From Nitrospirota bacterium (GTDB taxonomy: Bacteria; Nitrospirota; Thermodesulfovibrionia; Thermodesulfovibrionales; JdFR-86), in contig CAVRJY010000001.1 in the NCBI GenBank assembly GCA_963721805.1, positions 1,184,001 to 1,248,000 of the forward strand: 64,000 nt of DNA, in the 5' to 3' direction. The first letter of the stretch is position 1. Every line of letters begins with the position of its first letter. The notes under the pieces are model-generated. The model searched no databases. It saw nothing but the letters and a program-made list of their open reading frames with translations, and was not told where the DNA came from. Positions 42,273-54,831 of the stretch are shown in pieces. A program made the translations under genes and the position numbers.

Positions 42273-42662
42273 ATGCACACGCTTTTTGACTTCATCAGCC
42301 ACGTTAACGGCATGCAGTATGTAATCGCGCTCTGCTCGGTGGCGGGCTTCGCCCTGTTCGTCGAGCTCCTGAGCCCCAGGCCGTTTCTGGGACTGATCAG
42401 CGCGATCGCCGAGGACATAAGGCATATCAAGGCCGAGGGCTCGGTCAAGATCTACGCCCTCGCCCGAAACGGCGCTGTGGCCCTCGGGTGCGCCGCGATG
42501 TACGCGGCCTCGCTGCCGATACTGTTCGCTAGCGGTATGCTGGCGAACCTCGGAGAGACGTTCGAGGCCGTCAACCCCACCGGCTGGAACCCCGTACGGG
42601 CATACTTCGTAAAGCGCAGGAAGACGACGAAGACCGACAACAAGGACGAGGCCGGAAAATGA
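42273..42662 (+). CDS. Small membrane protein, paralogue 4 (N-terminus reminiscent of HmcD)
   Basis: MHTLFDFISHVNGMQYVIAL, C-terminal GWNPVRAYF followed by a basic tail, AGGAGG RBS. Confidence 0.75.
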   Translation: MHTLFDFISHVNGMQYVIALCSVAGFALFVELLSPRPFLGLISAIAEDIRHIKAEGSVKIYALARNGAVALGCAAMYAASLPILFASGMLANLGETFEAVNPTGWNPVRAYFVKRRKTTKTDNKDEAGK

Positions 42663-43126
42663 TCCCGGTCAGGCGTCTCGTATGCAGGACCGCGCTGCGC
42701 GTCCTCACAGCACTGCTCCTCGCGTGTTGCGCCGGCGCGGTCGCACTCGCTGATACGGGCAATATAACGATGCCCGGCACTATCAATATAAAGGCGCTCG
42801 AAGACCGCTTCGGCCCCGTGGCCTTTGACCACGAGAAGCACGTGACGATGGCCGGGGCGTGCGGCAAGTGCCACCACCTTCATAACGACAAGACAGTGGA
42901 CGCCTGCAGGACCTGCCATTCGCTCAAGGCCGAGGACTTCAGGGCCACGGCCACGCAGGGCTTTCTTCGGTGCGAGGGCTGCCACTCGGACGCCTCGGCC
43001 GAGTCGCCCGGCATGCCGGGGCTAAAGGTTGCGTTCCACAAGGTCTGCTTCTCGTGCCACGTTGGGATGGCCGGGCTCGGCTCGACCCCAAAGTCGTGCG
43101 AGCGCACCTGCCACTCACGCAGATGA
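42659..43126 (+). CDS. Periplasmic cytochrome c3-family protein (4 CxxCH plus 1 CxxxCH)
   Basis: Signal peptide, VAFDHEKH, CGKCH, CRTCH, CEGCH, CFSCH, CERTCH. Confidence 0.9.
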   Translation: MIPVRRLVCRTALRVLTALLLACCAGAVALADTGNITMPGTINIKALEDRFGPVAFDHEKHVTMAGACGKCHHLHNDKTVDACRTCHSLKAEDFRATATQGFLRCEGCHSDASAESPGMPGLKVAFHKVCFSCHVGMAGLGSTPKSCERTCHSRR

Positions 43127-43146
43127 TTAGCGATAAGGAGGGTGAA

Positions 43147-44106
43147 ATGTCTATAACAAATGAGGCCGCAGAAGGCGGCGCCCGCCCCAGCGGCATATCG
43201 AGGCGCGGTTTCCTCTCGCTCTCTGCCTTCGCGGCGGTCACAGCTATAGCAGGCAGCGCGCTTGCCTCGCCCGGCAACTCGGTGCCTGAGTTCAGCGGCT
43301 GGCCCAAGAGCTATGGCATGCTCACGGACTTCACCGCATGCGTCGGCTGCCGCAGTTGCGAGGCCGCCTGCAACGCGGCCAACAAGATGCCGAAGCCTGA
43401 TAAGCCCTTCGACGATCCGGCTGTCTTCGAGCAGGACCGCTGGCCCACGGCCTCGGCCCTTACGGTGGTAAACCGCTACAAGGGTGCGGACCCATCAAGG
43501 CCGGTATACAGAAAGATACAGTGCAACCACTGCCTCGAGCCCGCGTGCGCCTCGGCCTGCCCGATCCACGCTTACACCAAGACGCCCGAGGGCGCGGTCC
43601 TCTACAACCCGGACCTCTGCTTCGGCTGCCGGTACTGTGTCGTGGCCTGCCCGTTTAACATGCCTGCCTACGACTACGGCAGCGCGCTTCAGCCCAGGAT
43701 CGTAAAGTGCATCATGTGCCACCCCAAGATCGCGAAGGGCGAGGCCCCCGCGTGCGCCGCGGCCTGCCCCGCAGGCGCGATCACGTTCGGCCGCAGGGAA
43801 GAACTTATAAAGGTAGCGCACGAGAGGATCAAGAAGGACCCCGGCCGGTACATAGATCACGTCTATGGCGAGCACGAGGCAGGCGGCACGTCGTGGGTAT
43901 ACCTCTCGGGGGTGCCGTTTGAGCAGCTAGGGTTCCCGGTCAACCTCCCGGACAAGCCGATGATAGAGCTGTCGAAGGACTACCTCTCGTCCGTGCCGGT
44001 GATATTCACTACCTTCCCGGCGATATTCGGGCTCGTTTATTACGCGATGCGTGGTAAGGATAATAAGGACGAAAACGGCAAAGACAAGGAGACCCGCCAT
44101 GAATGA
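43147..44106 (+). CDS. Tat-exported 4x[4Fe-4S] protein (HybA/HmcB family)
   Basis: SRRGFL, CVGCRSCEAAC, CNHCLEPACASACP, CFGCRYCVVACP, CIMC..CAAACP, YGEHEAGGT, C-terminal TM. Confidence 0.92.
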   Translation: MSITNEAAEGGARPSGISRRGFLSLSAFAAVTAIAGSALASPGNSVPEFSGWPKSYGMLTDFTACVGCRSCEAACNAANKMPKPDKPFDDPAVFEQDRWPTASALTVVNRYKGADPSRPVYRKIQCNHCLEPACASACPIHAYTKTPEGAVLYNPDLCFGCRYCVVACPFNMPAYDYGSALQPRIVKCIMCHPKIAKGEAPACAAACPAGAITFGRREELIKVAHERIKKDPGRYIDHVYGEHEAGGTSWVYLSGVPFEQLGFPVNLPDKPMIELSKDYLSSVPVIFTTFPAIFGLVYYAMRGKDNKDENGKDKETRHE

Positions 44107-45343
44107 CGATGCCCGCGCGGCCGCGCGTCCGATAAGTTTCAGGGAGTGGTTCATGGACAAGCTGTTTATGGGCCTGAGCGCGCAGGACTACGCCCGCAGG
44201 ATAGCGACCCCCTTTAACATGGTCGCGGTCACGATACTCCTGGTGGCCACACCGGTGTTCTTCAGCCGTTACGTTTACGGCCTGGGCTCAGTGATGGACG
44301 CAACGAGCGAGTACCCCTGGGGCGTGCTCTTAAGCTGGGGGATCTTCGCCGGCGAGCCGATGTTCGCGTCCGGTTTCGTAGTGGCGGCGGCCTACTACCT
44401 CTTCGGTATGAAGTCCTTCAGGCCCCTGGTGCGGCTCGCGGTGCTCGGCGGGATGCTCGGCTATGCGTTTGCGGCCTCGTACCTCCTGATAGACCTGGGC
44501 AGGCCGTGGCGCTTGTACTATCCGATGGTCATCAACTTCGGGCCGTCCTCGGTCCTGTTCATCGTGGCCTGGCACGTATCGCTTTATGTCACGGTGCAGC
44601 TCCTGGAGTTCTCGCCGGCCATACTCGAATGGCTGGGCTCCAAGCGCATCCATAAGTGGGCCGTAAACGCCACGGTCGCGCTCATCATCGGCGGCGTCAT
44701 ACTCTCTACCGTGCACCAGTCTGCGCTCGGCGCGATGTACCTGATGACGCCTGGCAAACTCCACCCGCTATGGTATTCGCCGCGCCTGCCGCTGCTGTTT
44801 TTCAGCTCGGCGGTCTACGGCGCGATGTGCTTTGCGATGCTCCTTGCGTTCATCGCGGTGCGGTATTATCCTTCGCGCTGCGACAGGGCGTTTACGGACA
44901 GCATCCCGAAGCTCACGCTGAGCCTCGCCAAGGGCGCGGCGCTTGCGATGTACGTCTATTTCTCGCTCAAGGTGCTGGCGCTTGCCGAGGACAACCGGTG
45001 GGAGCTGCTCCTGACCCCCTTCGGCCACTGGTATCTCGTCGAGCTGCTGTGGTTCGTCGTGACGCCGATGGTGATGATGAGCGTCGCGGTCAAGCGCGAA
45101 AGCATAGGGCTGGCGCGCTTTTCGGCGCTGGCGGCGGCCCTCGGGATACTGCTTAACAGACTGAACGTGAACCTTATAGCGTATAATTGGGACAGGCCCG
45201 GCCACATGCACAACATCATCCCGGCCTGGACCGAGATCGTTATGATTATGGCGATGGTCACGCTGCACGTGATGGCCTTCAGGTGGATCATGAACAGGTT
45301 CCCGGTGACGAACGAGCTGCCGGAATACAGGGATTCGCATTAG
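44099..45343 (+). CDS. NrfD/PsrC-family integral membrane subunit (HybB/HmcC-like)
   Basis: YPWG, DLGRPWR, LSTVHQSALG, KLHPLWYS. Confidence 0.92.
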   Translation: MNDDARAAARPISFREWFMDKLFMGLSAQDYARRIATPFNMVAVTILLVATPVFFSRYVYGLGSVMDATSEYPWGVLLSWGIFAGEPMFASGFVVAAAYYLFGMKSFRPLVRLAVLGGMLGYAFAASYLLIDLGRPWRLYYPMVINFGPSSVLFIVAWHVSLYVTVQLLEFSPAILEWLGSKRIHKWAVNATVALIIGGVILSTVHQSALGAMYLMTPGKLHPLWYSPRLPLLFFSSAVYGAMCFAMLLAFIAVRYYPSRCDRAFTDSIPKLTLSLAKGAALAMYVYFSLKVLALAEDNRWELLLTPFGHWYLVELLWFVVTPMVMMSVAVKRESIGLARFSALAAALGILLNRLNVNLIAYNWDRPGHMHNIIPAWTEIVMIMAMVTLHVMAFRWIMNRFPVTNELPEYRDSH

Positions 45344-45353
45344 GAGGCCCGGG

Positions 45354-46820
45354 ATGCCCTCCCGCCTGAGCATGAGGATCGCGGCCGGATCGGCGGCAGC
45401 CTTCGCCGCGGTAATCGTCGCTGTTGCCCTGTTTGCCGCGACCTGCTTCGCCGAGGACGTCAGAGCCGGGGACGAGCGCGCGGCCTGCCTGAAGTGCCAC
45501 GCGCAGGGCGGCGGGATCAAGCGGTTTCCGGACGGGAAATCCATATCGACGTACGTCGACGGCGTGGAGCTCGAACAGTCCGTGCACGGCGCTCTGCCTT
45601 GCACCGCCTGCCACAAGGACTTCGCCTCGGGCCGCCACCCGGACCGCGCCTTCAGGAACAAGCCTCAGTACCTCATCCGCGAATCGCACGGCTGCCGGGG
45701 CTGCCACTCGGACGCCGCGCTCAGGCGCAAGCAGGTCCACGAGGAGCTGTTTGCGAAGGAAGACGCGGGCGACGCCATTGTATGCACCAACTGCCACGGA
45801 GCGCACGCGATACGGCGCGCCAGCCACGCCTCGGACAAGGGCGAGGACGAGCGCTGCATGGGTTGCCACGAGGGCGGCGGGGCATCTGAGTTCTTAAACG
45901 GCGAACAGCTGCCGGTCCATGTCGACCTCGCTGTGATCGGCAGCTCCGCGCACCACGGCCTGCGGTGCATGGACTGCCATTACTGGATCACGGGGGAGCG
46001 CCACCCGCGCCGGAACTTCCGCTCGCTGAGGGACTACCAGCTCGCCACGGCCGAGATCTGCCGCCGCTGCCACTTCGACAAGTACTCAGAGGTCAGCGAG
46101 AGCATCCACTACGACATGCTCAGAAGCGGGAACCTGAAGGCCCCCACCTGCATCGACTGCCACGGCGGGCACTCGGCCACCTCGCCTGCCAGGGACCGCA
46201 TGGCCGTCGTGCGCAAGTGCCGCGCCTGCCACGGCGGGATATACGAGACATACGCTGCGAGCGTCCACGGCAGCGCCCTGATACAGGAGGGCAACCGCGA
46301 CGTCCCGATCTGCACCGACTGCCACTCCTCGCACAGCATCAAGCGCGCCGACACGAACGCCTTCCACCAGGGGATCCCGGACACGTGCAGCGCCTGCCAC
46401 TCCAACCCGGCCATCATGTCCAAGTACGGGCTCTCGACCGACGTGGTCAGGACCTATCTTGCGGATTTCCACGGCGTGACGATGGAGTTCTACCGCAAGC
46501 AGGGCGGGATGTCGCAGTACCGCCCGGCGCAGAGCATGGCCGTGTGCACCGACTGCCACGGCACGCACGACATCATGCGCATGTCCGGCTCCGACACGAA
46601 GGAGATCAAGGCGCGGCTGCTCGAGCGCTGCCGCAACTGCCACCACGACGCCACCGAGCAGTTCCCCGACGCCTGGCTCTCGCACTACCGGCCGAGCTTG
46701 AAGGTAGCCCCGATGGTGTTCATAGTCGAGAAGTTCTACGGCCTGATGATGCCGCTGATGGTCGTCGGGCTGATACTCCAGATACTGCTTCACATATGGC
46801 GCTACCTGGTCAGCCGGTAA
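45354..46820 (+). CDS. Membrane-anchored multiheme cytochrome c (13 CxxCH)
   Basis: 13 CxxCH motifs counted, signal peptide, C-terminal TM helix. Confidence 0.93.
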   Translation: MPSRLSMRIAAGSAAAFAAVIVAVALFAATCFAEDVRAGDERAACLKCHAQGGGIKRFPDGKSISTYVDGVELEQSVHGALPCTACHKDFASGRHPDRAFRNKPQYLIRESHGCRGCHSDAALRRKQVHEELFAKEDAGDAIVCTNCHGAHAIRRASHASDKGEDERCMGCHEGGGASEFLNGEQLPVHVDLAVIGSSAHHGLRCMDCHYWITGERHPRRNFRSLRDYQLATAEICRRCHFDKYSEVSESIHYDMLRSGNLKAPTCIDCHGGHSATSPARDRMAVVRKCRACHGGIYETYAASVHGSALIQEGNRDVPICTDCHSSHSIKRADTNAFHQGIPDTCSACHSNPAIMSKYGLSTDVVRTYLADFHGVTMEFYRKQGGMSQYRPAQSMAVCTDCHGTHDIMRMSGSDTKEIKARLLERCRNCHHDATEQFPDAWLSHYRPSLKVAPMVFIVEKFYGLMMPLMVVGLILQILLHIWRYLVSR

Positions 46821-46830
46821 GGAGGACACC

Positions 46831-47520
46831 ATGAAACCCGCGATACACGCCGATCAAGAGGAAGTCCGGAGGTTCAGCAACTACCGGATTGCGGAGCACT
46901 TCAGCCTTCTGGCGCTGTTCGTCATCCTCGCCTCGACCGGCCTGGCCCAGAAGTTCCACGAACTCCCGCTCGCGCAGAGCTTCATGGTCTTCATGGGCGG
47001 CATCAGTACCATGCGCGCCGTGCACCACGCCGCCGGGGTTGGGCTGCTGGTCCTCCTTCTCGAACACGTGCTCACGGCCTGCGCCGGGATGTCGTTCTGG
47101 CGCTGGTCGCCCTCCATGCTCGTCACGTTCAAGGACTTCAGGGACACGCAGCAGAACGTCAGCTATTACCTAGGCATACAGCCTGAGCCCCCCAGGTTCG
47201 GCAGGTACAGCTACAAGGAGAAGTTCGTCTACTGGCTGATCCTGCTGGGCAGCCTGCAGCTGATCGTCTCGGGCCTCGTGCTCTGGTTTCCGGTGGCGGT
47301 CGCTAAGGTCCTGCCGGGGCAGTTCATCCCGGCCTCGAAGGTCGTACACTCAAACGACGCGATGACGATATTCCTGATGATTGCGATATGGCATATTTAC
47401 GATTCCATATTCAGCCCCGACGTGCTGCCGCTTGACAAGAGCATCTTTACCGGATATATTTCGGTTAAGAGGATGCGGGCCGAGCACCCGCACGAGGCTG
47501 CAGGCGAAAGACAGGACTGA
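46831..47520 (+). CDS. Di-heme cytochrome b (FdnI/formate dehydrogenase gamma-like)
   Basis: Four TM helices with His ligands, GRYSYKEKFVYW, WHIY. Confidence 0.88.
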   Translation: MKPAIHADQEEVRRFSNYRIAEHFSLLALFVILASTGLAQKFHELPLAQSFMVFMGGISTMRAVHHAAGVGLLVLLLEHVLTACAGMSFWRWSPSMLVTFKDFRDTQQNVSYYLGIQPEPPRFGRYSYKEKFVYWLILLGSLQLIVSGLVLWFPVAVAKVLPGQFIPASKVVHSNDAMTIFLMIAIWHIYDSIFSPDVLPLDKSIFTGYISVKRMRAEHPHEAAGERQD

Positions 47521-47616
47521 CAGGGCGGATGCGCCCGGACCTGCATGCCCCGGCCTCCGGCCCTCGCGGTATTTTTTGCTATACTGTTCAATGACGCGAC
47601 CGGTGCGGGGGAGACC

Positions 47617-49473
47617 ATGCAGCGCAAGATAGTTCTCCTTATAATGAGCTGCGTGCTGGTTATCCTCCTGACCGTGGGCATCGTAAGCCACCTCCGAGTC
47701 CAGGAAAGCATCAACCATTACATGGACTCCCACCTCGACCTGGCGCAGATGATCAGCCGCAACCTCGACGCCGTGGTCGAGCAAAACATAGCGAGGCTCC
47801 AGGGGATCGCGCTCTCGGGCGACCTCAGCCCCGGAGGGCCGGGCCTGGAGGCCGAGCGCAGCGCTCTTAGGGAGGCGTACGCTTATTCGCTCTTCGACCA
47901 CGGCCTGTTCCTGATGGACCTCCAGGGCAACGTCGTGCTCACTTACCCCCCGCGCGACGAAGAGCAGCGCAACCTTTTGGCCATTCCGATCGTCGCCGAC
48001 GCGATTGCGAAAAATGAGGTCTCCGTCTCCGGCATGTACACCGAGGCCGATACCGGCCAGAGCCTCTTGTACGTCCTCGTCCCGGTTAAGGGCGCAGACG
48101 GCGAGGTCGGCGGGTTCGTGGGTGGCGAGATCAGCCCCGCAAACGGGATGCTCGCCTCGTTCATACGCACCGTCGCTTCTGACAAATACATGAGCCTGGA
48201 TCTGGTGGACAGCCGCGGCACCGTGATAGCGAGCAACCGCGGCGACCGCGTCATGCAGCACCTCGACTATAAAAACGTCATCACCAAGATGATACACGAG
48301 GGCCGGAACTTCGTCGGCATCTGCCATAACTGCCATTTCTCGACGACCGAGGGCAACAGCCGGCTGCGGGAGGAGGACGTCCTCGTGTTCGTCCCGCTTA
48401 AAAGCGCGCCGTGGGGCATATCGATCCGCCACCCGAGCGAGATAGTCTTCGGCCCGGCCCGCAGCCTCAGGAAGTCTTTCCTGCTGATAGGGGCGCTCAT
48501 TATCGGCGTCTCGGTGGTGCTGTCCGTGGGGCTCAGCCGGAGCATTGTCCGGCCGCTCAAGGAACTGACCGCGGCGTCAGAGCGCATAGCGGAGTGCAAC
48601 CTCGACGAGCCTGTCACGGTCAGGCGCTCCGACGAGATAGGGGTGCTCGCAAACAGCTTCGAGCTCATGCGCTGGAGGCTCAACGAGCTCCTGGGCAGGA
48701 TACAGACGCATAACCAGGAACTCGAGCACCGCGTGGCCGAGCGCACCTCGGAGCTCCAGCGCAGGAAGCTCCAGCTCTCGCGGCTCGTGCGCGAGGGCAT
48801 GCGCGCACAGGAGGACGAGCGCAGGCGCATTGCGCGCGAGCTCCACGACGAGACCAGCCAGACGCTGGCCGCCATGGGTATGTCGCTTGAGATCGCGACC
48901 GTCGCGCTTGCCGACGAGAAGCTCACCCCCGAGATGCTCGCCGGTTTGCAGGGCCGCGTCGGAGTGCTCGTCGACGGGATACACCGCATCATACAGGACC
49001 TGCGCCCGCCGGTGCTCGACGACCTCGGGCTCGAATCCGCGGTGCGGTGGCTGTTGAGGAAGAACCTCGACGAAAACGGCATAGAGTACACGTTCAGCTT
49101 CAGCGGGATCGAGGACCTGGAGATCGAAAAGAAGGAGGAGATGCGCATCTTCCGCATAATACAGGAGGCCCTCGCCAACATAGTGCGCCACTCGCGCGCG
49201 TCTCACGTATGCTTCAGCATGGCGGCCGACGAATTCACGCTCGACATAGACATCGTGGATAACGGCGTAGGCTTCGACGCCGAGGGCGCATTCGGCGGCT
49301 CGAGGGCCGACGAGGGGCTCAAGGGCTACGGCCTGCTCGGGATGCACGAGCGCGTCGAGCAGTTTTCAGGCGCGTTTTCGGTCACCTCGTTCCCGCTTGA
49401 GGAGACCGATATCGAGATCAGCCTCCCGATGGAGTTGATAGTGAAGAAAGGGAGCGGGACCGATATTGCATAA
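47617..49473 (+). CDS. Sensor histidine kinase (Cache-like, HAMP, HisKA_3) with periplasmic CxxCH
   Basis: ERRRIARELHDETSQ, QEALANIVRH, DNGVGF, GLLGMHER, CHNCH in the sensor domain. Confidence 0.93.
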   Translation: MQRKIVLLIMSCVLVILLTVGIVSHLRVQESINHYMDSHLDLAQMISRNLDAVVEQNIARLQGIALSGDLSPGGPGLEAERSALREAYAYSLFDHGLFLMDLQGNVVLTYPPRDEEQRNLLAIPIVADAIAKNEVSVSGMYTEADTGQSLLYVLVPVKGADGEVGGFVGGEISPANGMLASFIRTVASDKYMSLDLVDSRGTVIASNRGDRVMQHLDYKNVITKMIHEGRNFVGICHNCHFSTTEGNSRLREEDVLVFVPLKSAPWGISIRHPSEIVFGPARSLRKSFLLIGALIIGVSVVLSVGLSRSIVRPLKELTAASERIAECNLDEPVTVRRSDEIGVLANSFELMRWRLNELLGRIQTHNQELEHRVAERTSELQRRKLQLSRLVREGMRAQEDERRRIARELHDETSQTLAAMGMSLEIATVALADEKLTPEMLAGLQGRVGVLVDGIHRIIQDLRPPVLDDLGLESAVRWLLRKNLDENGIEYTFSFSGIEDLEIEKKEEMRIFRIIQEALANIVRHSRASHVCFSMAADEFTLDIDIVDNGVGFDAEGAFGGSRADEGLKGYGLLGMHERVEQFSGAFSVTSFPLEETDIEISLPMELIVKKGSGTDIA

Positions 49474-50125
49474 GCCGATCAAGATACTGATTGTCGACGA
49501 CCACGCGCTCGTGCGCGAGGGCATCCGCGCTTTGGTCGCGATGCACGAGGGCATCGAAGTAGTCGGCGAGGCCGAAGACGGCCTGCAAGCCATCGAGATG
49601 ACCGGCGACCTCGACCCCGACGTGGTGCTTATGGATATTGCGATGCCCAGGTACGGCGGCCTCGAGGCCACGCTCGAGATCAGGAAGAAGCACAAGGACG
49701 CCAAGATACTGATCCTCAGCCAGTACGACGACCCCCAGTACCTCGACCGCTTCCTCAAGGCCGGCGTCTCGGGGTATATCCTGAAGAAGGCCCTCGGCTC
49801 CGAGCTCGTCTCGGCCATCCGCGCGGTCGCGGCCGGGGAATCATACCTCCACCCGAGCCTGACCGCCAACGTGATAGAGCGCTACCTCTCGAAGGGCTCG
49901 CCCAAAAAGCCGGCAGAGCCCGTGAGCCTGACCTCACGCGAGCAGCAGATATTGAAGCTGCTGGCCGAGGGCAACAGCCACAAGGAGATAGCCTCGATAC
50001 TCGATATCAGCGTCAAGACCGTCGTCGCCCACCAGTCGAACATCTCCGAGAAGCTCGACCTGCATACGCGCGCCGGGCTCATAAAATACGCCTTCCAGCA
50101 CGGCATAGTCAGGGCCGAATCGTGA
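49466..50125 (+). CDS. NarL/LuxR-family response regulator
   Basis: IVDDH, MDIAMP, LTSREQQILKLLAEG, ISVKTV. Confidence 0.95.
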   Translation: MHKPIKILIVDDHALVREGIRALVAMHEGIEVVGEAEDGLQAIEMTGDLDPDVVLMDIAMPRYGGLEATLEIRKKHKDAKILILSQYDDPQYLDRFLKAGVSGYILKKALGSELVSAIRAVAAGESYLHPSLTANVIERYLSKGSPKKPAEPVSLTSREQQILKLLAEGNSHKEIASILDISVKTVVAHQSNISEKLDLHTRAGLIKYAFQHGIVRAES

Positions 50126-50170: not shown

Positions 50171-50200
50171 AAAAGGGTTTGCGATCTCTCGCAAACCCTT
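50171..50200. terminator. Hairpin terminator between the response regulator and the convergent tRNA
   Basis: AAGGGTTTGCGA-tctc-TCGCAAACCCTT, with a T-run on the minus strand. Confidence 0.8.
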
Positions 50201-50209
50201 GGTATTAAG

Positions 50210-50283
50210 TGCCCCCTGCAAGGCTCGAACTTGCGACCCCAGGTTTAGGAAACCTGTGCTCTGTCCAACTGAGCTAAGAGGGC
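50210..50283 (-). tRNA. tRNA-Arg (anticodon CCT)
   Basis: Reverse complement GCCCTCTTAGCTCAGTTGGACAGAGCACAGGTTTCCTAAACCTGGGGTCGCAAGTTCGAGCCTTGCAGGGGGCA folds as a cloverleaf. CCA is not encoded. Confidence 0.95.
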
Positions 50284-50527
50284 TCAGCAGATACTCTAAC
50301 ATGACGGCGTGAGCCCAGTCAAAACACCGCGATTCCCTCCTCGCCGCGCACTGATAACGCGCTTCAGCCACCCTGAAAATAATATTTCAAGCGATTGAAA
50401 ATAGGCTATTAACATTTTCCTTGCTTTATGAGATAATTATTAAATATTATAGTGCGAAAGCGCACTTAGCTAAGTTTTATGGCTTATTTACGCGGAATTA
50501 TTCACATAACGAACATGGAGGGTCAGT

Positions 50528-51640
50528 ATGGAGGAAAAACCAGGCAGGCCGTTTGGCGAACTCTACGACTCATTGATCCAGCGCGGCGTGACGCGCCGGG
50601 ACTTCCTGACGTTCTGCAGCACGATGGCCGCGGCCCTGGCGCTGCCGGCCGGTTACGGCGCGACAATTGCCGAGGCGCTGGAGAAGGCAAAGAAGCCGAT
50701 CGTCGTCTGGCTCGAGATGCAGGCCTGCACCGGGGATACAGAGTCCCTGCTTCGGGCCACCAAGCCCGCGGTCGGAGAGCTGCTCCTTGACATCATCTCC
50801 CTGGACTACGCTGAGGTGATCATGGCCTCGGCCGGTTTCCAGGCCGAGAAGTGCCTCTCCGACGTGGTCAAGAACGAGAAGGGCAAGTACATCTGCATCA
50901 TCGAGGGCGCGATCCCGCTGGCCGAGGGCGGCATATACGGCACCATCGGCGGCAGGACAATGGTCGATATTGCTAGAGAGGTCAGCGGCAGCGCCCTGGC
51001 CACAATCGCTGTCGGCAACTGCGCCTGGGACGGAGGAATACCCGCGGCCCAGCCTAACCCCACCGGCGCGGTGGGGGTCAAGGACGCCGTGAGCGGCATA
51101 ACGCTGATCAACCTGCCCGGCTGCCCGATGAACGGAGAGAACCTTACGGCAGTAATCGTGCACTTCCTGACGTTCGGCACCCTGCCGGTCACCGATACCT
51201 TTGGCCGCCCGCGCTTCGCATACGGCAAGCGCGTCCATGACAACTGCGAGCGCCGCGCGCACTTCGACGCCGGGCAGTATGTCCGCAGGTGGGGCGACGA
51301 AGGCCACCGCCTCGGCTGGTGCCTCTACGAGATGGGGTGCAAGGGGCCGGACACCTTCCATAACTGCCCTATCGTCAGGTGGAACGGGGGCACAAGTTGG
51401 CCGGTGCAGTCCGGCCACGGCTGCATAGGCTGTGCTGCGCCTCACTTCTGGGATACGATGACTCCGTTCTACCGCAGGCTGCCCAAGGTGCCGGGCTTCG
51501 GCATCGAGACCACGGCCGACAAGATCGGCCTCGGCGTGGCTGCCGCGGCCGCCGCGGGCCTCGCAGCGCATGCCATAACCAGGGCGGTAAAGGGCGGTTA
51601 CAAGCCCGAGGAACATAAAAAAGAGGAGGATAAAAAATAA
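50528..51640 (+). CDS. [NiFe]-hydrogenase small subunit (group 1, Tat-exported, C-terminal anchor)
   Basis: [42 protein letters not shown]. Confidence 0.96.
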
Positions 51641-53349
51641 TGCCGAAAATCGTAGTCGACCCGATCACGAGGATCGAGGGACATTTGAGGATCGAGGCGC
51701 AGGTCGATGGCGGTAAGATCGTCGACGCGTGGGCCTCGTCCACGGCATTCCGCGGGATAGAGATCATACTGAAGGGCAGAGACCCGCGCGACGCATGGGC
51801 CTTTACCCAGCGAATATGCGGGGTCTGAACGACCGTTCATGCCACCGCATCCGTGCGATGCGTCGAGAGCGCTTTAAACATAACGATCCCCGATAACGCG
51901 AGGGTCATACGCAATATCATCAGCGGCATGCAGCAGGTGCAGGACCACATCATACACTTCTATCACCTGCATGCCCTTGACTGGGTAGACGTCGTCTCCG
52001 CGCTCAAGGCCGACCCGGCCAAGACCTCCGCGCTCGCCCAGTCGATCTCCGACTGGCACAACTCCAGCGCCGCGTATTTCAAGGGAGTGGCGGCAAAGCT
52101 CACCGAGTTCGTCCAGCGCGGCCAGCTCGGCCCGTTCGCGAACGCATACTGGGGGCACAAGGCCTATAAGCTCCCGCCCGAGGCGAACCTGATGGCCGTG
52201 GCTCATTATCTCGAGGCCCTCGAAATTCAGAAAGACATCATCCGCCTGCACGCCACCCTGGGCGGCAAGAACCCCCACTTGCAGACGTACGTCGTTGGCG
52301 GCATGGCGTGCCCGATCGATCCCAACAGCCAAAACGCGATCAACGCCGCGAGTATCCAGTTCATGAAGGATCTTTCCGCGAGGGCCACCGCGTTCGTCGA
52401 GCAGGTATACATCCCTGACCTGCTGGCGGTGGCCTCGTTCTACAAGGACTGGGCCGCGATAGGCGAGGGCGTGGGCAACTACCTCTCAGCCGGCGACTTC
52501 CCCATGGACGGCCTGCCCAACAGCACGAACAACTGGCTTCCGGGCGGAGTGATCAAGGGCAAGAACCTCTCGAAGGTCGAGACCGTAGATCCCAAGAAGA
52601 TCGCAGAGCACGTCGCCCACTCGTGGTATACATACTCTGGCGGCGACGAGAAGGGCGTCCACCCGTATGACGGCGAGACGAGCCCGAAATATACCGGGCC
52701 CAAGCCGCCATATAAGGAACTCGACACTGCCGCCAAATACACCTGGTCCAAGGCCCCGCGTTACGACGACCTGCCGATGGAGGTCGGGCCGCTCTCGCGC
52801 ATGCTAGTGGCGTACGCACAGGGCCACAAAGAGGTGGTCGAGGTCGTGAACCTCGTCTTAGGAAAACTCGGAGTGGGACCGGCGGCGTTGTTCTCGACTC
52901 TGGGCCGCACCGGAGCCCGTGGAGTCGAGACGCTCGTGATAGCCCGTAAGCTGCCGTCGATGATCGACGAGCTCGCGGCGAACATCAAGAAGGGCGACCT
53001 CGCTATAGCTAACACGACTCTATGGGAGCCCTCGACCTGGCCGAGCGAGTGCAGGGGGTACGGTTTCCACGAGGCCCCGCGCGGCATGCTGAGCCATTGG
53101 ATCAACATCAAGGACCAGAAGATCGCGAACTACCAGTGCATAGTGCCCGGCACCTGGAACGTCTCTCCGCGCGACGCAAAGGGGCAGCGCGGCCCTTACG
53201 AGGCTGCCCTGATCGGCACGCCGATCGAGAACCTCGAGCAGCCGCTGGAGATCCTGCGCACGGTGCATTCGTTCGACCCATGCATGGCGTGCGCGGTGCA
53301 CGTGGTCGACGCCCAGAAAAACCCGGTCATCACAGTAAAGGTGAAGTAG
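51640..53349 (+). CDS. [NiFe]-hydrogenase large subunit, 569 aa if the in-frame TGA at 51826-51828 is read through (candidate Sec63)
   Basis: [16 protein letters not shown][TGA][19 protein letters not shown] plus cleavable C-terminal tail. Both ORF-track fragments are in the same frame. Confidence 0.93.
51826..51862 (+). promoter_or_regulatory. Candidate bacterial SECIS element following the in-frame UGA
   Basis: Stem CGCATC (51846-51851)/GATGCG (51857-51862), loop CGTGC with GU at loop positions 2-3, loop starting 23 nt after UGA. Confidence 0.55.
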
Positions 53350-53365
53350 GGAAGGAGGACAGACC

Positions 53366-54055
53366 GTGATTGATAAAGGAAATGGGGAGACCTGCTCCCT
53401 TGCGTCACGCATAGTGTATGTCTGGCAGGTCCCGGTCCGCCTCGTGCACTGGACGAACGTCCTGAGCATCCTGACGCTCTCGGTCACGGGCTTCTACATC
53501 GGGGCTCCGTTCATGCACGCCATCGACACGACTCAAAACATAATGGGCAACATCAGGTTCATCCACTTCACGGTCGCCTACATTTTCCTGGTGAGCGTGC
53601 TGTCGCGCATCGCGTGGTCGTTCATGGGCAACAAGTATGCGAGTTGGAGGACATGGTTCCCGTTTTCGCGGCCTCACCTCGGCGAGCTGTGGAACGCCCT
53701 TAAGTTCTATATCATGATAGGCGGCAAGAAGCCCACCGTGGTCGGCCACACGGGCGTTGCGCTCATCACGTATTTTTTCCTGCATGTGCTGTACGCGCTC
53801 ATGCTTCTTACAGGCTTCGCCTTTTACAGCATGGGCAGGCCCGAAAGTTTCGTGACGTTCCTGATGGGCAGGTGGGTGCTGAACTACGTGAGCCCGCAGG
53901 ACCTCCGGCTTTACCACCACATAACCATGTACGTGATCCTGACCTTCGCGGCCGTGCACGTTTACATCGCGTGGTGGTTCGACCTGATCGAGCGAAACGG
54001 GATAATGAGCAGCATGTTCAGCGGCAACAAGTTCCTGCACGAGGAAGAACGTTAA
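53366..54055 (+). CDS. Ni/Fe-hydrogenase b-type cytochrome subunit (HyaC/HupC)
   Basis: YVWQVPVRLVHW, RFIHF, LYHH, VHVY, SSMFSG. Confidence 0.93.
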   Translation: MIDKGNGETCSLASRIVYVWQVPVRLVHWTNVLSILTLSVTGFYIGAPFMHAIDTTQNIMGNIRFIHFTVAYIFLVSVLSRIAWSFMGNKYASWRTWFPFSRPHLGELWNALKFYIMIGGKKPTVVGHTGVALITYFFLHVLYALMLLTGFAFYSMGRPESFVTFLMGRWVLNYVSPQDLRLYHHITMYVILTFAAVHVYIAWWFDLIERNGIMSSMFSGNKFLHEEER

Positions 54056-54554
54056 ACTCTCGATCATAGGCATAGGCAATACCCTGCTCAGCGACGAGGG
54101 TGCGGGGGTGCACGCCGTAAGGGCGCTCGTGGAGAGGTACAGCTTCCCCGGAGGCGTCCGGCTGATCGACGGCGGCACGAAGGGGCTCGAACTGCTCTCT
54201 TACGTCGAGGGCGACCACCTGATGCTGCTTGACGCGGTGGACTTCGGCGCTGCCCCCGGCACGGTGCGCATGATCGAGGGCGACGGCATCCACGCGTTTA
54301 TGGACATGAAGTTCTCGGTCCACCAGATCGGGGTGCCGGACCTCCTGTTCGCCGCGATGCTGACGGACGCGCTTCCGAGGGACGTCTGTCTGGTTGGGAT
54401 ACAGCCTCAGTCGCTCGAGGCAGGGCTGGAGCTTACGGACGTGGTGCGTGGTAAAATGGAAGAACTCCTCGGCATGGCCGTGGAGCGGCTCCGCTCGTGG
54501 GGCGTAGAGGTTGCCATCAAGGAGGCGGCTGATGTGTCTTGCGATTCCCTCTAA
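54051..54554 (+). CDS. Hydrogenase maturation protease (HyaD/HupD), no canonical start codon
   Basis: (V)KLSIIGIGNTLLSDEGAGVHAV, IDGGT, LDAVD, SVHQIG. The frame is open upstream of the ORF-track start. Confidence 0.88.
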   Translation, partial: VKLSIIGIGNTLLSDEGAGVHAVRALVERYSFPGGVRLIDGGTKGLELLSYVEGDHLMLLDAVDFGAAPGTVRMIEGDGIHAFMDMKFSVHQIGVPDLLFAAMLTDALPRDVCLVGIQPQSLEAGLELTDVVRGKMEELLGMAVERLRSWGVEVAIKEAADVSCDSL

Positions 54555-54831
54555 AGTTATAGAACTTGACGATATGCTCGCTACCGTGGATCTGTACGGC
54601 GCGCGCACCTCGGTGAGCCTGATGCTGATGCCCGAGGAGGTCAGGGTGGGCGACTACGTGCTCGTCCATGCCGGGTTCGCCCTGCAGCGCCTCGATGAGG
54701 CCGCGGCGCTCGATTCGCTCGCGCTGCTTCGTGAGGTTCAGGAGTTCATCGAGGCCGAAGAGGCCGAGGCGCGCGCCTCGGGTTTATTGTGCGGCCCCGT
54801 CCACGAAGGGCCTAAACTGAACTATTTGTAG
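54532..54831 (+). CDS. hypC: Hydrogenase assembly chaperone HypC/HupF
   Basis: MCLAIP N-terminus, [11 protein letters not shown]. Confidence 0.95.

Follow-up and report, generated by a model that had tools for sequence, protein, structure and literature searches.

The locus described here raises the question of whether a TGA codon inside the large subunit gene of a [NiFe]-hydrogenase is read as selenocysteine (Sec) under the direction of a stem-loop lying directly downstream, or is a random error. The window (the whole stretch of 64,000 nucleotides, positions 1,184,001 to 1,248,000 of contig CAVRJY010000001.1 of a Nitrospirota bacterium) had been described in an earlier note, made from the sequence alone, as carrying a SECIS-like structure and unusual codon choices after this codon, with synonymous sites constrained by RNA structure; as an alternative, the TGA was proposed to have arisen by template switching. 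The list of open reading frames under the standard code contained only a 498-aa piece of the gene, with an internal GTG start and the N-terminal motif missing. The features of the hydrogenase operon are as follows:

50409..50437, + strand: match to a sigma-70-like promoter (10/12) upstream of the hydrogenase operon, a consensus match only
50528..51640, + strand: small subunit of the hydrogenase, with a Tat signal; CTGD in place of CxxC at the proximal-cluster motif
51640..53349, + strand: large subunit of a group 1 [NiFe]-hydrogenase, ATG at 51640 to TAG at 53349; 569 aa with the TGA read through
51817..51819, + strand: TGC, Cys60, first ligand of the N-terminal motif; TGA at this codon in each of the 8 same-family orthologues retrieved
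51826..51828, + strand: in-frame TGA, codon 63 of the large subunit, conserved in 157 distinct homologous sequences
53275..53301, + strand: C-terminal Ni motif DPCMACAVH, Cys throughout; no Sec at the classical [NiFeSe] position
53366..54055, + strand: Ni/Fe-hydrogenase b-type cytochrome subunit (TIGR02125, above cut-off)
54108..54831, + strand: genes of a hydrogenase maturation protease (TIGR00072) and HypC (TIGR00074)

The large subunit was matched by Pfam PF00374 with 791 bits, and its closest solved structures were group 1 uptake enzymes (E 1e-209). Its sequence type is that of group 1: the N-terminal RxCxxC position reads R-I-C-G-V-U, the C-terminal motif is DPCxxCxxH and a maturation tail is present. 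None of the Hyd-1, Hyd-2 and HysA equivalogs was matched above its cut-off. DPC..C was found at the C-terminal motif in all 107 TGA sequences (of 157) whose locus extends that far. The predicted AlphaFold model (pTM 0.86) informs the fold and the helix limits (66-78) only, without ligand geometry. Since the neighbouring genes encode a Tat-signal small subunit, a b-type cytochrome, the protease and HypC, the protein was assigned to the membrane-linked group 1 uptake enzymes.

Some further characteristics of the surroundings were recorded. The small subunit carries ACTGDTES at 50723-50746, with CTGD as the proximal Fe-S motif. The corresponding residue was D in 18, N in 14 and C in 9 of the 41 TGA-type loci whose flank covers the motif, and C in both of the only two Cys-type loci scored; an altered proximal-cluster ligand may go together with the selenium site, to judge from these sequences. 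An upstream cluster at 42273-50125 encodes a c-type cytochrome, a multiheme cytochrome and a cytochrome b, HmcB/HmcC-like Fe-S and membrane proteins and a two-component pair; it may plausibly serve the hydrogenase as an electron route or regulate it. A tRNA-Arg(CCT) gene on the minus strand, with a terminator-like hairpin, occupies 50173-50283, between the regulator and the AT-rich promoter region of the hydrogenase.

Residue 63 was aligned with the bridging Cys79 of E. coli Hyd-1 and with Cys64 of Hyd-2, and its column is Cys in all 27 Cys-type homologues of the alignment. From the alignment to Hyd-1 Cys79, we infer a bridging role for residue 63. For Sec in an N-terminal CXXU motif, the available part of PMC13582414 likewise gives a prediction that it bridges Ni and Fe.

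Two hairpins are formed by the RNA at and after the UGA:

51826..51839, + strand: hairpin UGAAC-GACC-GUUCA enclosing the UGA, arising largely as a side effect of the U-T-T-V-H codons
51846..51862, + strand: putative SECIS upper stem-loop, CGCAUC (51846-51851) pairing with GAUGCG (51857-51862), loop CGUGC (51852-51856)

The geometry reported in the earlier note for the stem-loop was exact, coordinates and RNAfold being in agreement: the loop CGUGC starts 23 nt after the UGA of codon 63, and 32 nt after codon 60. The consensus model of bacterial SECIS elements (bSECIS), as given in the available part of PMC13188914, comprises an apical loop of 3-9 nt, an upper stem of 4-16 bp, a G in the first two loop positions, a UGA-to-loop distance of 16-37 nt and a minimum free energy of -7.5 kcal/mol or lower. 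The element of the window has, within the coding region, a 5-nt loop with G at position 2 followed by U, a 6-bp upper stem, a spacing of 23 nt and an in-frame UGA at a conserved Cys position, in agreement with the general model as claimed earlier; it differs in the missing optional N1-N2 loop pair (C...C). The codons of the stem are uncommon, as had been proposed for CGA: in the 934 long ORFs of the genome, CGA accounts for 5.9% of Arg and GCA for 10.3% of Ala codons (GTT for 8.1% of Val). In the large-subunit gene itself, with a GC3 of 83%, CGA is used in 2 of 22 Arg codons and GTT in 2 of 46 Val codons.

Taken alone, the fold is ordinary. RNAfold gave -10.7 kcal/mol for 51826-51862, with both hairpins formed, -9.6 for 51830-51870, -6.8 for the bare 17-nt hairpin and -7.8 for 51840-51870, the last lying marginally within the model limit of -7.5. 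The folding z was -1.65 for 51826-51862, -0.40 for 51820-51880 and +0.26 for 51830-51870, and ranged from -1.65 to +0.86 over six windows. For 51820-51880, the stretch whose folding had been proposed as a check, the stability is not beyond chance. A model-conforming hairpin of -6 kcal/mol or better follows 651 of 4883 ordinary Cys codons in the genome, and some hairpin of -7.5 or better was present in 16 of 30 Cys homologues; the generic model discriminates poorly in this 60% GC genome and among Cys homologues. No family match near threshold was obtained in an Rfam search. As the hairpin alone is not beyond chance, its significance rests on the homologues only.

Covariation was assessed in 149 distinct aligned TGA rows (of the 157 TGA sequences) and, as a control, in 30 Cys rows that carry T-x-[VT]-H; a further 10 Cys rows, of greater distance, were excluded from it. 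In the TGA rows, 80.3% of the six stem pairs were formed, with 66 double-sided changes and a covariation of 0.199, a score reached in 0 of 500 shuffles and exceeding all six slid controls. The Cys rows had 49.4% of the pairs formed, a single double-sided change and a score reached in 487 of 500 shuffles, which is not beyond chance. A perfect 5-bp core was found in 90 of the 157 TGA sequences versus none of the 30 Cys sequences, and the case that the earlier note had named as refuting, a hairpin equally present in Cys-encoding homologues, was not seen. The loop G (alignment column 37) was invariant in all 149 TGA rows, not in the Cys rows, and at least 14 switches among perfect stem types were counted on the tree. 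Codon choice was skewed in the same manner, relative to expectations derived from each gene's own usage. Val72 was GTG in 108 of 112 TGA genes (36.9 expected) versus 4 of 19 Cys genes (4.1 expected), and Arg73 was AGA or CGA in 85 of 112 TGA genes (21.2 expected) versus 13 of 26 Cys genes (12.7 expected).

The structure is not uniform within the TGA family. Most TGA genes other than those with the perfect core use shifted registers, and at least three stem registers occur, namely a CGUG[AC] pentaloop, a GGU triloop with a bulge and, in a Hyd-2-like subclade, a loop at 18 nt; the folds of 26 of the 157 TGA sequences place the loop elsewhere, and a G-loop at 22-24 nt also appears in the folds of 6 of the 30 Cys sequences. 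RNAalifold returned no consensus pairs over all 149 TGA rows, probably owing to the mixed registers; on 44 rows it recovered the stem, an illustrative result only, these rows having been chosen from tree clades with stems already known. The Fisher p of 2e-11 overstates, owing to kinship: independent Sec/Cys contrasts numbered only four, with the hairpin tracking Sec in 3.4 of 4 on average, and p<0.05 is unreachable with them. Of the 78 genomes with TGA genes, 74 contained selA, as did 19 of the 30 in which all such genes are of the Cys type. Cys and TGA paralogues occur together in three genomes (G187, G211 and G238) and on one Chloroflexota contig (loci L179/L180, L181/L182, L183/L184 and L135); the Cys copies have no perfect stem, and such pairs are a possible selenium-dependent back-up.

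The genome, with a completeness of 94%, encodes the machinery for Sec insertion. Profile searches detected selB (380 bits), selA (576), selD (356, with its own TGA) and tRNA-Sec (71), all above cut-offs, and the tRNA-Sec is canonical (8-bp acceptor, UCA anticodon, G discriminator). The comparison with other SECIS elements of the genome that had been proposed was carried out. In selD (C1:1484911), the UGA is followed at 32 nt by a CGUGC loop identical to that of the hydrogenase, on a stem with a single mismatch, no model-conforming hairpin free of mismatch being found in this gene; the shared loop suggests a preference of the host SelB. Among the matches listed in a noisy selenoprotein motif scan, further UGA genes, all candidate selenoproteins, were Prx (TFVU; L236, C4:235740), NifU-like (CYRU; L237, C1:1013086), TlpA/redoxin-like (WUARC; L238, C2:494289), Grx-like (WUGYC; L239, C2:94336) and MsrA-like (GUFWG; L240, C1:533439). 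The Grx-like domain is fused to an N-terminal domain, and the labels Grx-like and MsrA-like were read from motifs, not from library matches. G-loop hairpins lie 20-26 nt downstream of the UGA in the Prx, NifU-like, TlpA-like and MsrA-like genes; that of the Grx-like gene is ambiguous.

The hairpin is very likely a real SECIS because of the covariation in TGA genes, the perfect core in 90/157 versus 0/30 sequences, the presence of selA, selB, selC and selD, and the CGUGC loop of selD. The complete Sec machinery, the codon skews and a covariation confined to TGA genes bear out the constraint on synonymous sites that had been postulated, and argue against a random error. We therefore hold with high confidence that the window contains a real SECIS in a group 1 hydrogenase with a predicted bridging selenocysteine.

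Other readings of the codon have to be weighed against this one. Even behind a real SECIS, the UGA could be read as cysteine by a tRNA-ReC (SelC*), leaving no selenium at residue 63. In the available part of Takano et al. 2026 (PMC13582414), on group 4 enzymes, tRNA-ReC is enriched in UxxU genomes (about 56%) and UGA may then be Cys; the 94% completeness of the present genome is a further point in favour of this reading. Against it, only one intact UCA tRNA was found, canonical and with a G discriminator, together with one ordinary 76-nt tRNA-Cys, and only one CysRS-like gene scores strongly. At default thresholds, this 94% complete genome yielded no tRNA-ReC (long, UCA or GCA anticodon, U discriminator) and no second CysRS; a low-threshold ARAGORN scan gave other tca/gca candidates within 798 noisy matches. 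Within the scope of these searches, decoding as cysteine is considered very improbable. Another proposal is that template switching, in perfecting UGAAC/GUUCA, introduced the TGA recently, as a nonsense mutation or an error of assembly, leaving a broken gene with a chance hairpin. This draws on the palindrome, perfect in the window, and on the frequency of SECIS-like hairpins after ordinary Cys codons (651/4883). It is contradicted by the presence of the TGA in 157 distinct homologues with open downstream frames, 62 of the 149 aligned ones being without the A-U pair supposedly perfected; in addition, the second TGA of the relatives lies outside any such palindrome, and the downstream stem covaries. 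An independent soil contig of 151 nt with 91% identity showed no difference at either motif codon but had GTC at Val66 (one contig, depth 2.1, weak). The conservation of the TGA across phyla refutes the template-switch origin, and a broken gene retains next to no probability.

A further proposal would add to the SECIS a function of the hairpin that buries the UGA, e.g., ribosome pausing or shielding from release factor 2. This hairpin is present at 51826-51839 as the earlier note had described it, with the A of the UGA paired to the wobble U of the GTT Val codon, and GTT is enriched at Val66 in TGA genes (66 of 113, 24.1 expected; Cys genes 12 of 26, 9.2 expected). However, the protein sequence dictates four of its five pairs, which likewise occur in 29-30 of the 30 Cys genes, whereas the fifth (A-U) is formed in 87 and broken in 62 of the 149 TGA rows, with no covariation. 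For the Val66 codon, the tree shows a minimum of 28 changes, and no link emerged from independent contrasts (1.2 for, 0.6 against); its wobble U can pair in the lower SECIS stem instead, and the closer soil contig has GTC at this position. Moreover, when the UGA is in the A site, the geometry of the ribosome requires that the surrounding hairpin be already melted. The Val66 wobble base seems constrained because of the enrichment of GTT (66 versus 24 expected), with an ambiguous partner, since the A of the UGA and the A of the downstream Glu codon are both invariant. A function of the UGA hairpin is considered unlikely.

For the SECIS, the constraint extends beyond synonymous sites to the choice of amino acids at codons 70 and 74, to judge from the sequences compared. 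In perfect stems, these codons are reverse complements of each other, and therefore an Ala/Ala pair is impossible and one Ala is replaced by Ser, Cys or Gly. The stem types among the 157 TGA sequences were AGC/GCT (Ser/Ala, 52), TGC/GCA (Cys/Ala, 31), GCT/AGC (Ala/Ser, 6) and GCC/GGC (Ala/Gly, 5), and GCA/TGC (Ala70/Cys74) was found once, in the gene of the window; in the JGI metagenomes, this last type had 0 matches. Ala/Ala was present in 24 of the 30 Cys genes and in 24 of the 157 TGA genes, the latter being those with the bulged register. Both residues lie on the predicted helix 66-78 of the AlphaFold model. The Cys-type Hyd-2 of E. coli has Ser at position 70, and such residue swaps are accordingly within tolerated space.

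To determine the spread of the TGA, relatives were collected from several datasets. In a 40-genome search, the 29 loci fetched comprised 22 UxxU, 4 CxxU and 3 CxxC motifs, with TGA at the codon-63 position in 26; among the same-family genomes, all eight with an orthologue were UxxU, and two of ten had no group 1 match. A GTDB pattern scan, which demanded TGA at the second position and hence gives no Cys or UxxC frequencies, yielded among the matches listed at least 119 such hydrogenases in 120 loci (63 UxxU, 56 CxxU), with one chance match (L081). These matches belonged to at least seven named phyla: Chloroflexota, Nitrospirota, Thermodesulfobacteriota, plus single records of four others. The UxxC pattern was found in 0 of 301 genomes of the phylum of the window and in two loci of the JGI metagenomes, L244, in which the family stem is retained at a distance of 32 nt from the single UGA, and L243, which has no such stem and is possibly erroneous or a pseudogene. 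The named neighbours of the window gene on the 148-row tree place the organism in Nitrospirota, likely in Thermodesulfovibrionales. On this tree, the minimum number of changes was 13 at the first position and 6 at the second, these counts being without direction.

Two other observations were made among the relatives. In two genomes, UxxU genes (L231, L232) lie about 4.6 kb from a second, Cys-type large subunit (532 aa, RICGVCPTSH). A Hyd-2-like clade of about 50% identity (L045, L047, L048, L216, L222; L069, L082, L102) is CxxU with other hairpins, in which the loop lies at 18 nt or a GGU/GGC triloop occurs at 23 nt; this suggests that the same codon is served by SECIS elements of separate design.

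In trees calculated after masking of the motif and SECIS codons, the gene of the window was placed inside same-family UxxU genes, all with AGC/GCT stems (supports 97/90, 97/90, 100/99 and 98/94). The alternative grouping with seven other CxxU genes (six of Nitrospirota, one labelled delta proteobacterium) was rejected with a p-AU of 4e-60, in a test on 36 of the 148 rows with a Chloroflexota/Methylomirabilota outgroup. This nesting points to a likely reversion of the first Sec to Cys in the window lineage, together with three stem pairs flipped on both arms. The six compensated substitutions are not explicable as an assembly error; the single-base TGC at codon 60 could be one, but the soil contig, of low depth, does not differ there. 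Arm swaps link GCA/TGC with TGC/GCA and AGC/GCT with GCT/AGC, and it may be speculated that template switching helped to flip both arms at once. Among the sequencing runs listed, none of RNA contained the organism, and two DNA runs contained relatives only.

The following course of events is proposed. From the position in the tree, the ancestor would have been a UxxU enzyme with an AGC/GCT stem; in the lineage of the window, the first UGA would have become TGC and the stem pairs would have changed from A-U to G-C, from G-C to C-G and from C-G to A-U, the resulting GCA/TGC stem leaving Ala70 and Cys74. By analogy with established SelB/SECIS biology, SelB would bind the G-containing apical loop and Sec would be inserted at codon 63, where it is predicted from Hyd-1 Cys79 to bridge Ni and Fe. 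When selenium is lacking, the ribosome would likely stop at codon 63, which would tie the enzyme to the selenium supply. With moderate confidence, somewhat above even, the data as a whole are read as a large and so far unnoticed family of group 1 uptake hydrogenases (at least 119 species in seven phyla) in which one SECIS directs Sec to two UGAs three codons apart. The bridging Sec would be the stable core and the terminal Sec of the N-terminal motif a switchable extra (at least 13 versus 6 changes on the tree, UxxC almost absent), and the gene of the window would be a natural revertant of such a di-selenium enzyme, with two helix residues beside the active site rewritten by its SECIS. If this is true, N-terminal Sec would be a common form of the group 1 selenium hydrogenase and no exception. 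These genes also offer a test case of whether a single bacterial SECIS is able to serve UGAs at 23 and 32 nt. Because standard translation splits them and removes the N-terminal motif, surveys of hydrogenases in Nitrospirota and Chloroflexota are likely to overlook these genes or to label them wrongly.

Studies of [NiFeSe]-hydrogenases are built on enzymes with selenium at a single terminal ligand, in the C-terminal motif. The classical enzyme (HysA, NF045518) shares with the present one the group 1 fold, Sec as a Ni ligand and the dependence on SelB and SECIS; its Sec is the terminal ligand in a C-terminal UxxC, whereas DPCMACAVH is found here. Identity with HysA was rejected on the NF045518 score (408 versus a cut-off of 780) and the Cys-only C-terminal motif. 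Takano et al. 2026 described 47 group 4 enzymes with N-terminal CXXU, UXXC or UXXU, groups 1-3 being excluded, and suggested that a single SECIS may serve both UGAs (PMC13582414, available part). According to the same part, Sec solely in the N-terminal motif, a mosaic distribution of Cys and Sec and the SECIS loop G are common to both; the group 4 large subunit sits in an antiporter-containing complex, whereas here a Tat-signal small subunit and a cytochrome b accompany a protein nearest to group 1. A group 4 N-terminal-Sec hydrogenase was ruled out by the group 1 sequence type and the gene neighbours.

Similar in kind are two group 1 CXXU sequences reported, with one of group 3, by Baltazar et al. 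2011, as cited in the available part of PMC13582414; group, motif position and the Sec predicted to bridge Ni and Fe are the same. In contrast to that pair, the present family spans at least 119 GTDB species genomes of seven named phyla, over half of them UxxU, and has a SECIS with covariation. Our literature search, with most subscription journals outside its scope, yielded no description of a group 1 UxxU family or its SECIS; the bridging-Sec layout was known from sequences, with no study of the natural enzyme found. The kind itself being known from sequences only, what is added here is the evidence from covariation, the cost of the hairpin at the level of residues and a natural CxxU revertant inside a UxxU family.

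Selenium at the equivalent ligand has been engineered in E. coli Hyd-1 C79U, which was active at 13% of the native level, the best of four variants, with a lower KM for H2 and an almost complete inactivation by prolonged O2 (Evans et al. 2021, PMC8020662, available part). There, in contrast to the natural genes, insertion was artificial (UAG/EF-Tu), and no O2 tolerance was gained from that position. Although the engineered bridging variant is slower and has no O2 tolerance, selenium is retained at this position in these bacteria, at a price in protein sequence paid for the SECIS. The CxxU gene of the window, its UxxU relatives (about 78% identity) and the Cys revertants form a natural series on the role of each selenium in H2 affinity and catalysis.
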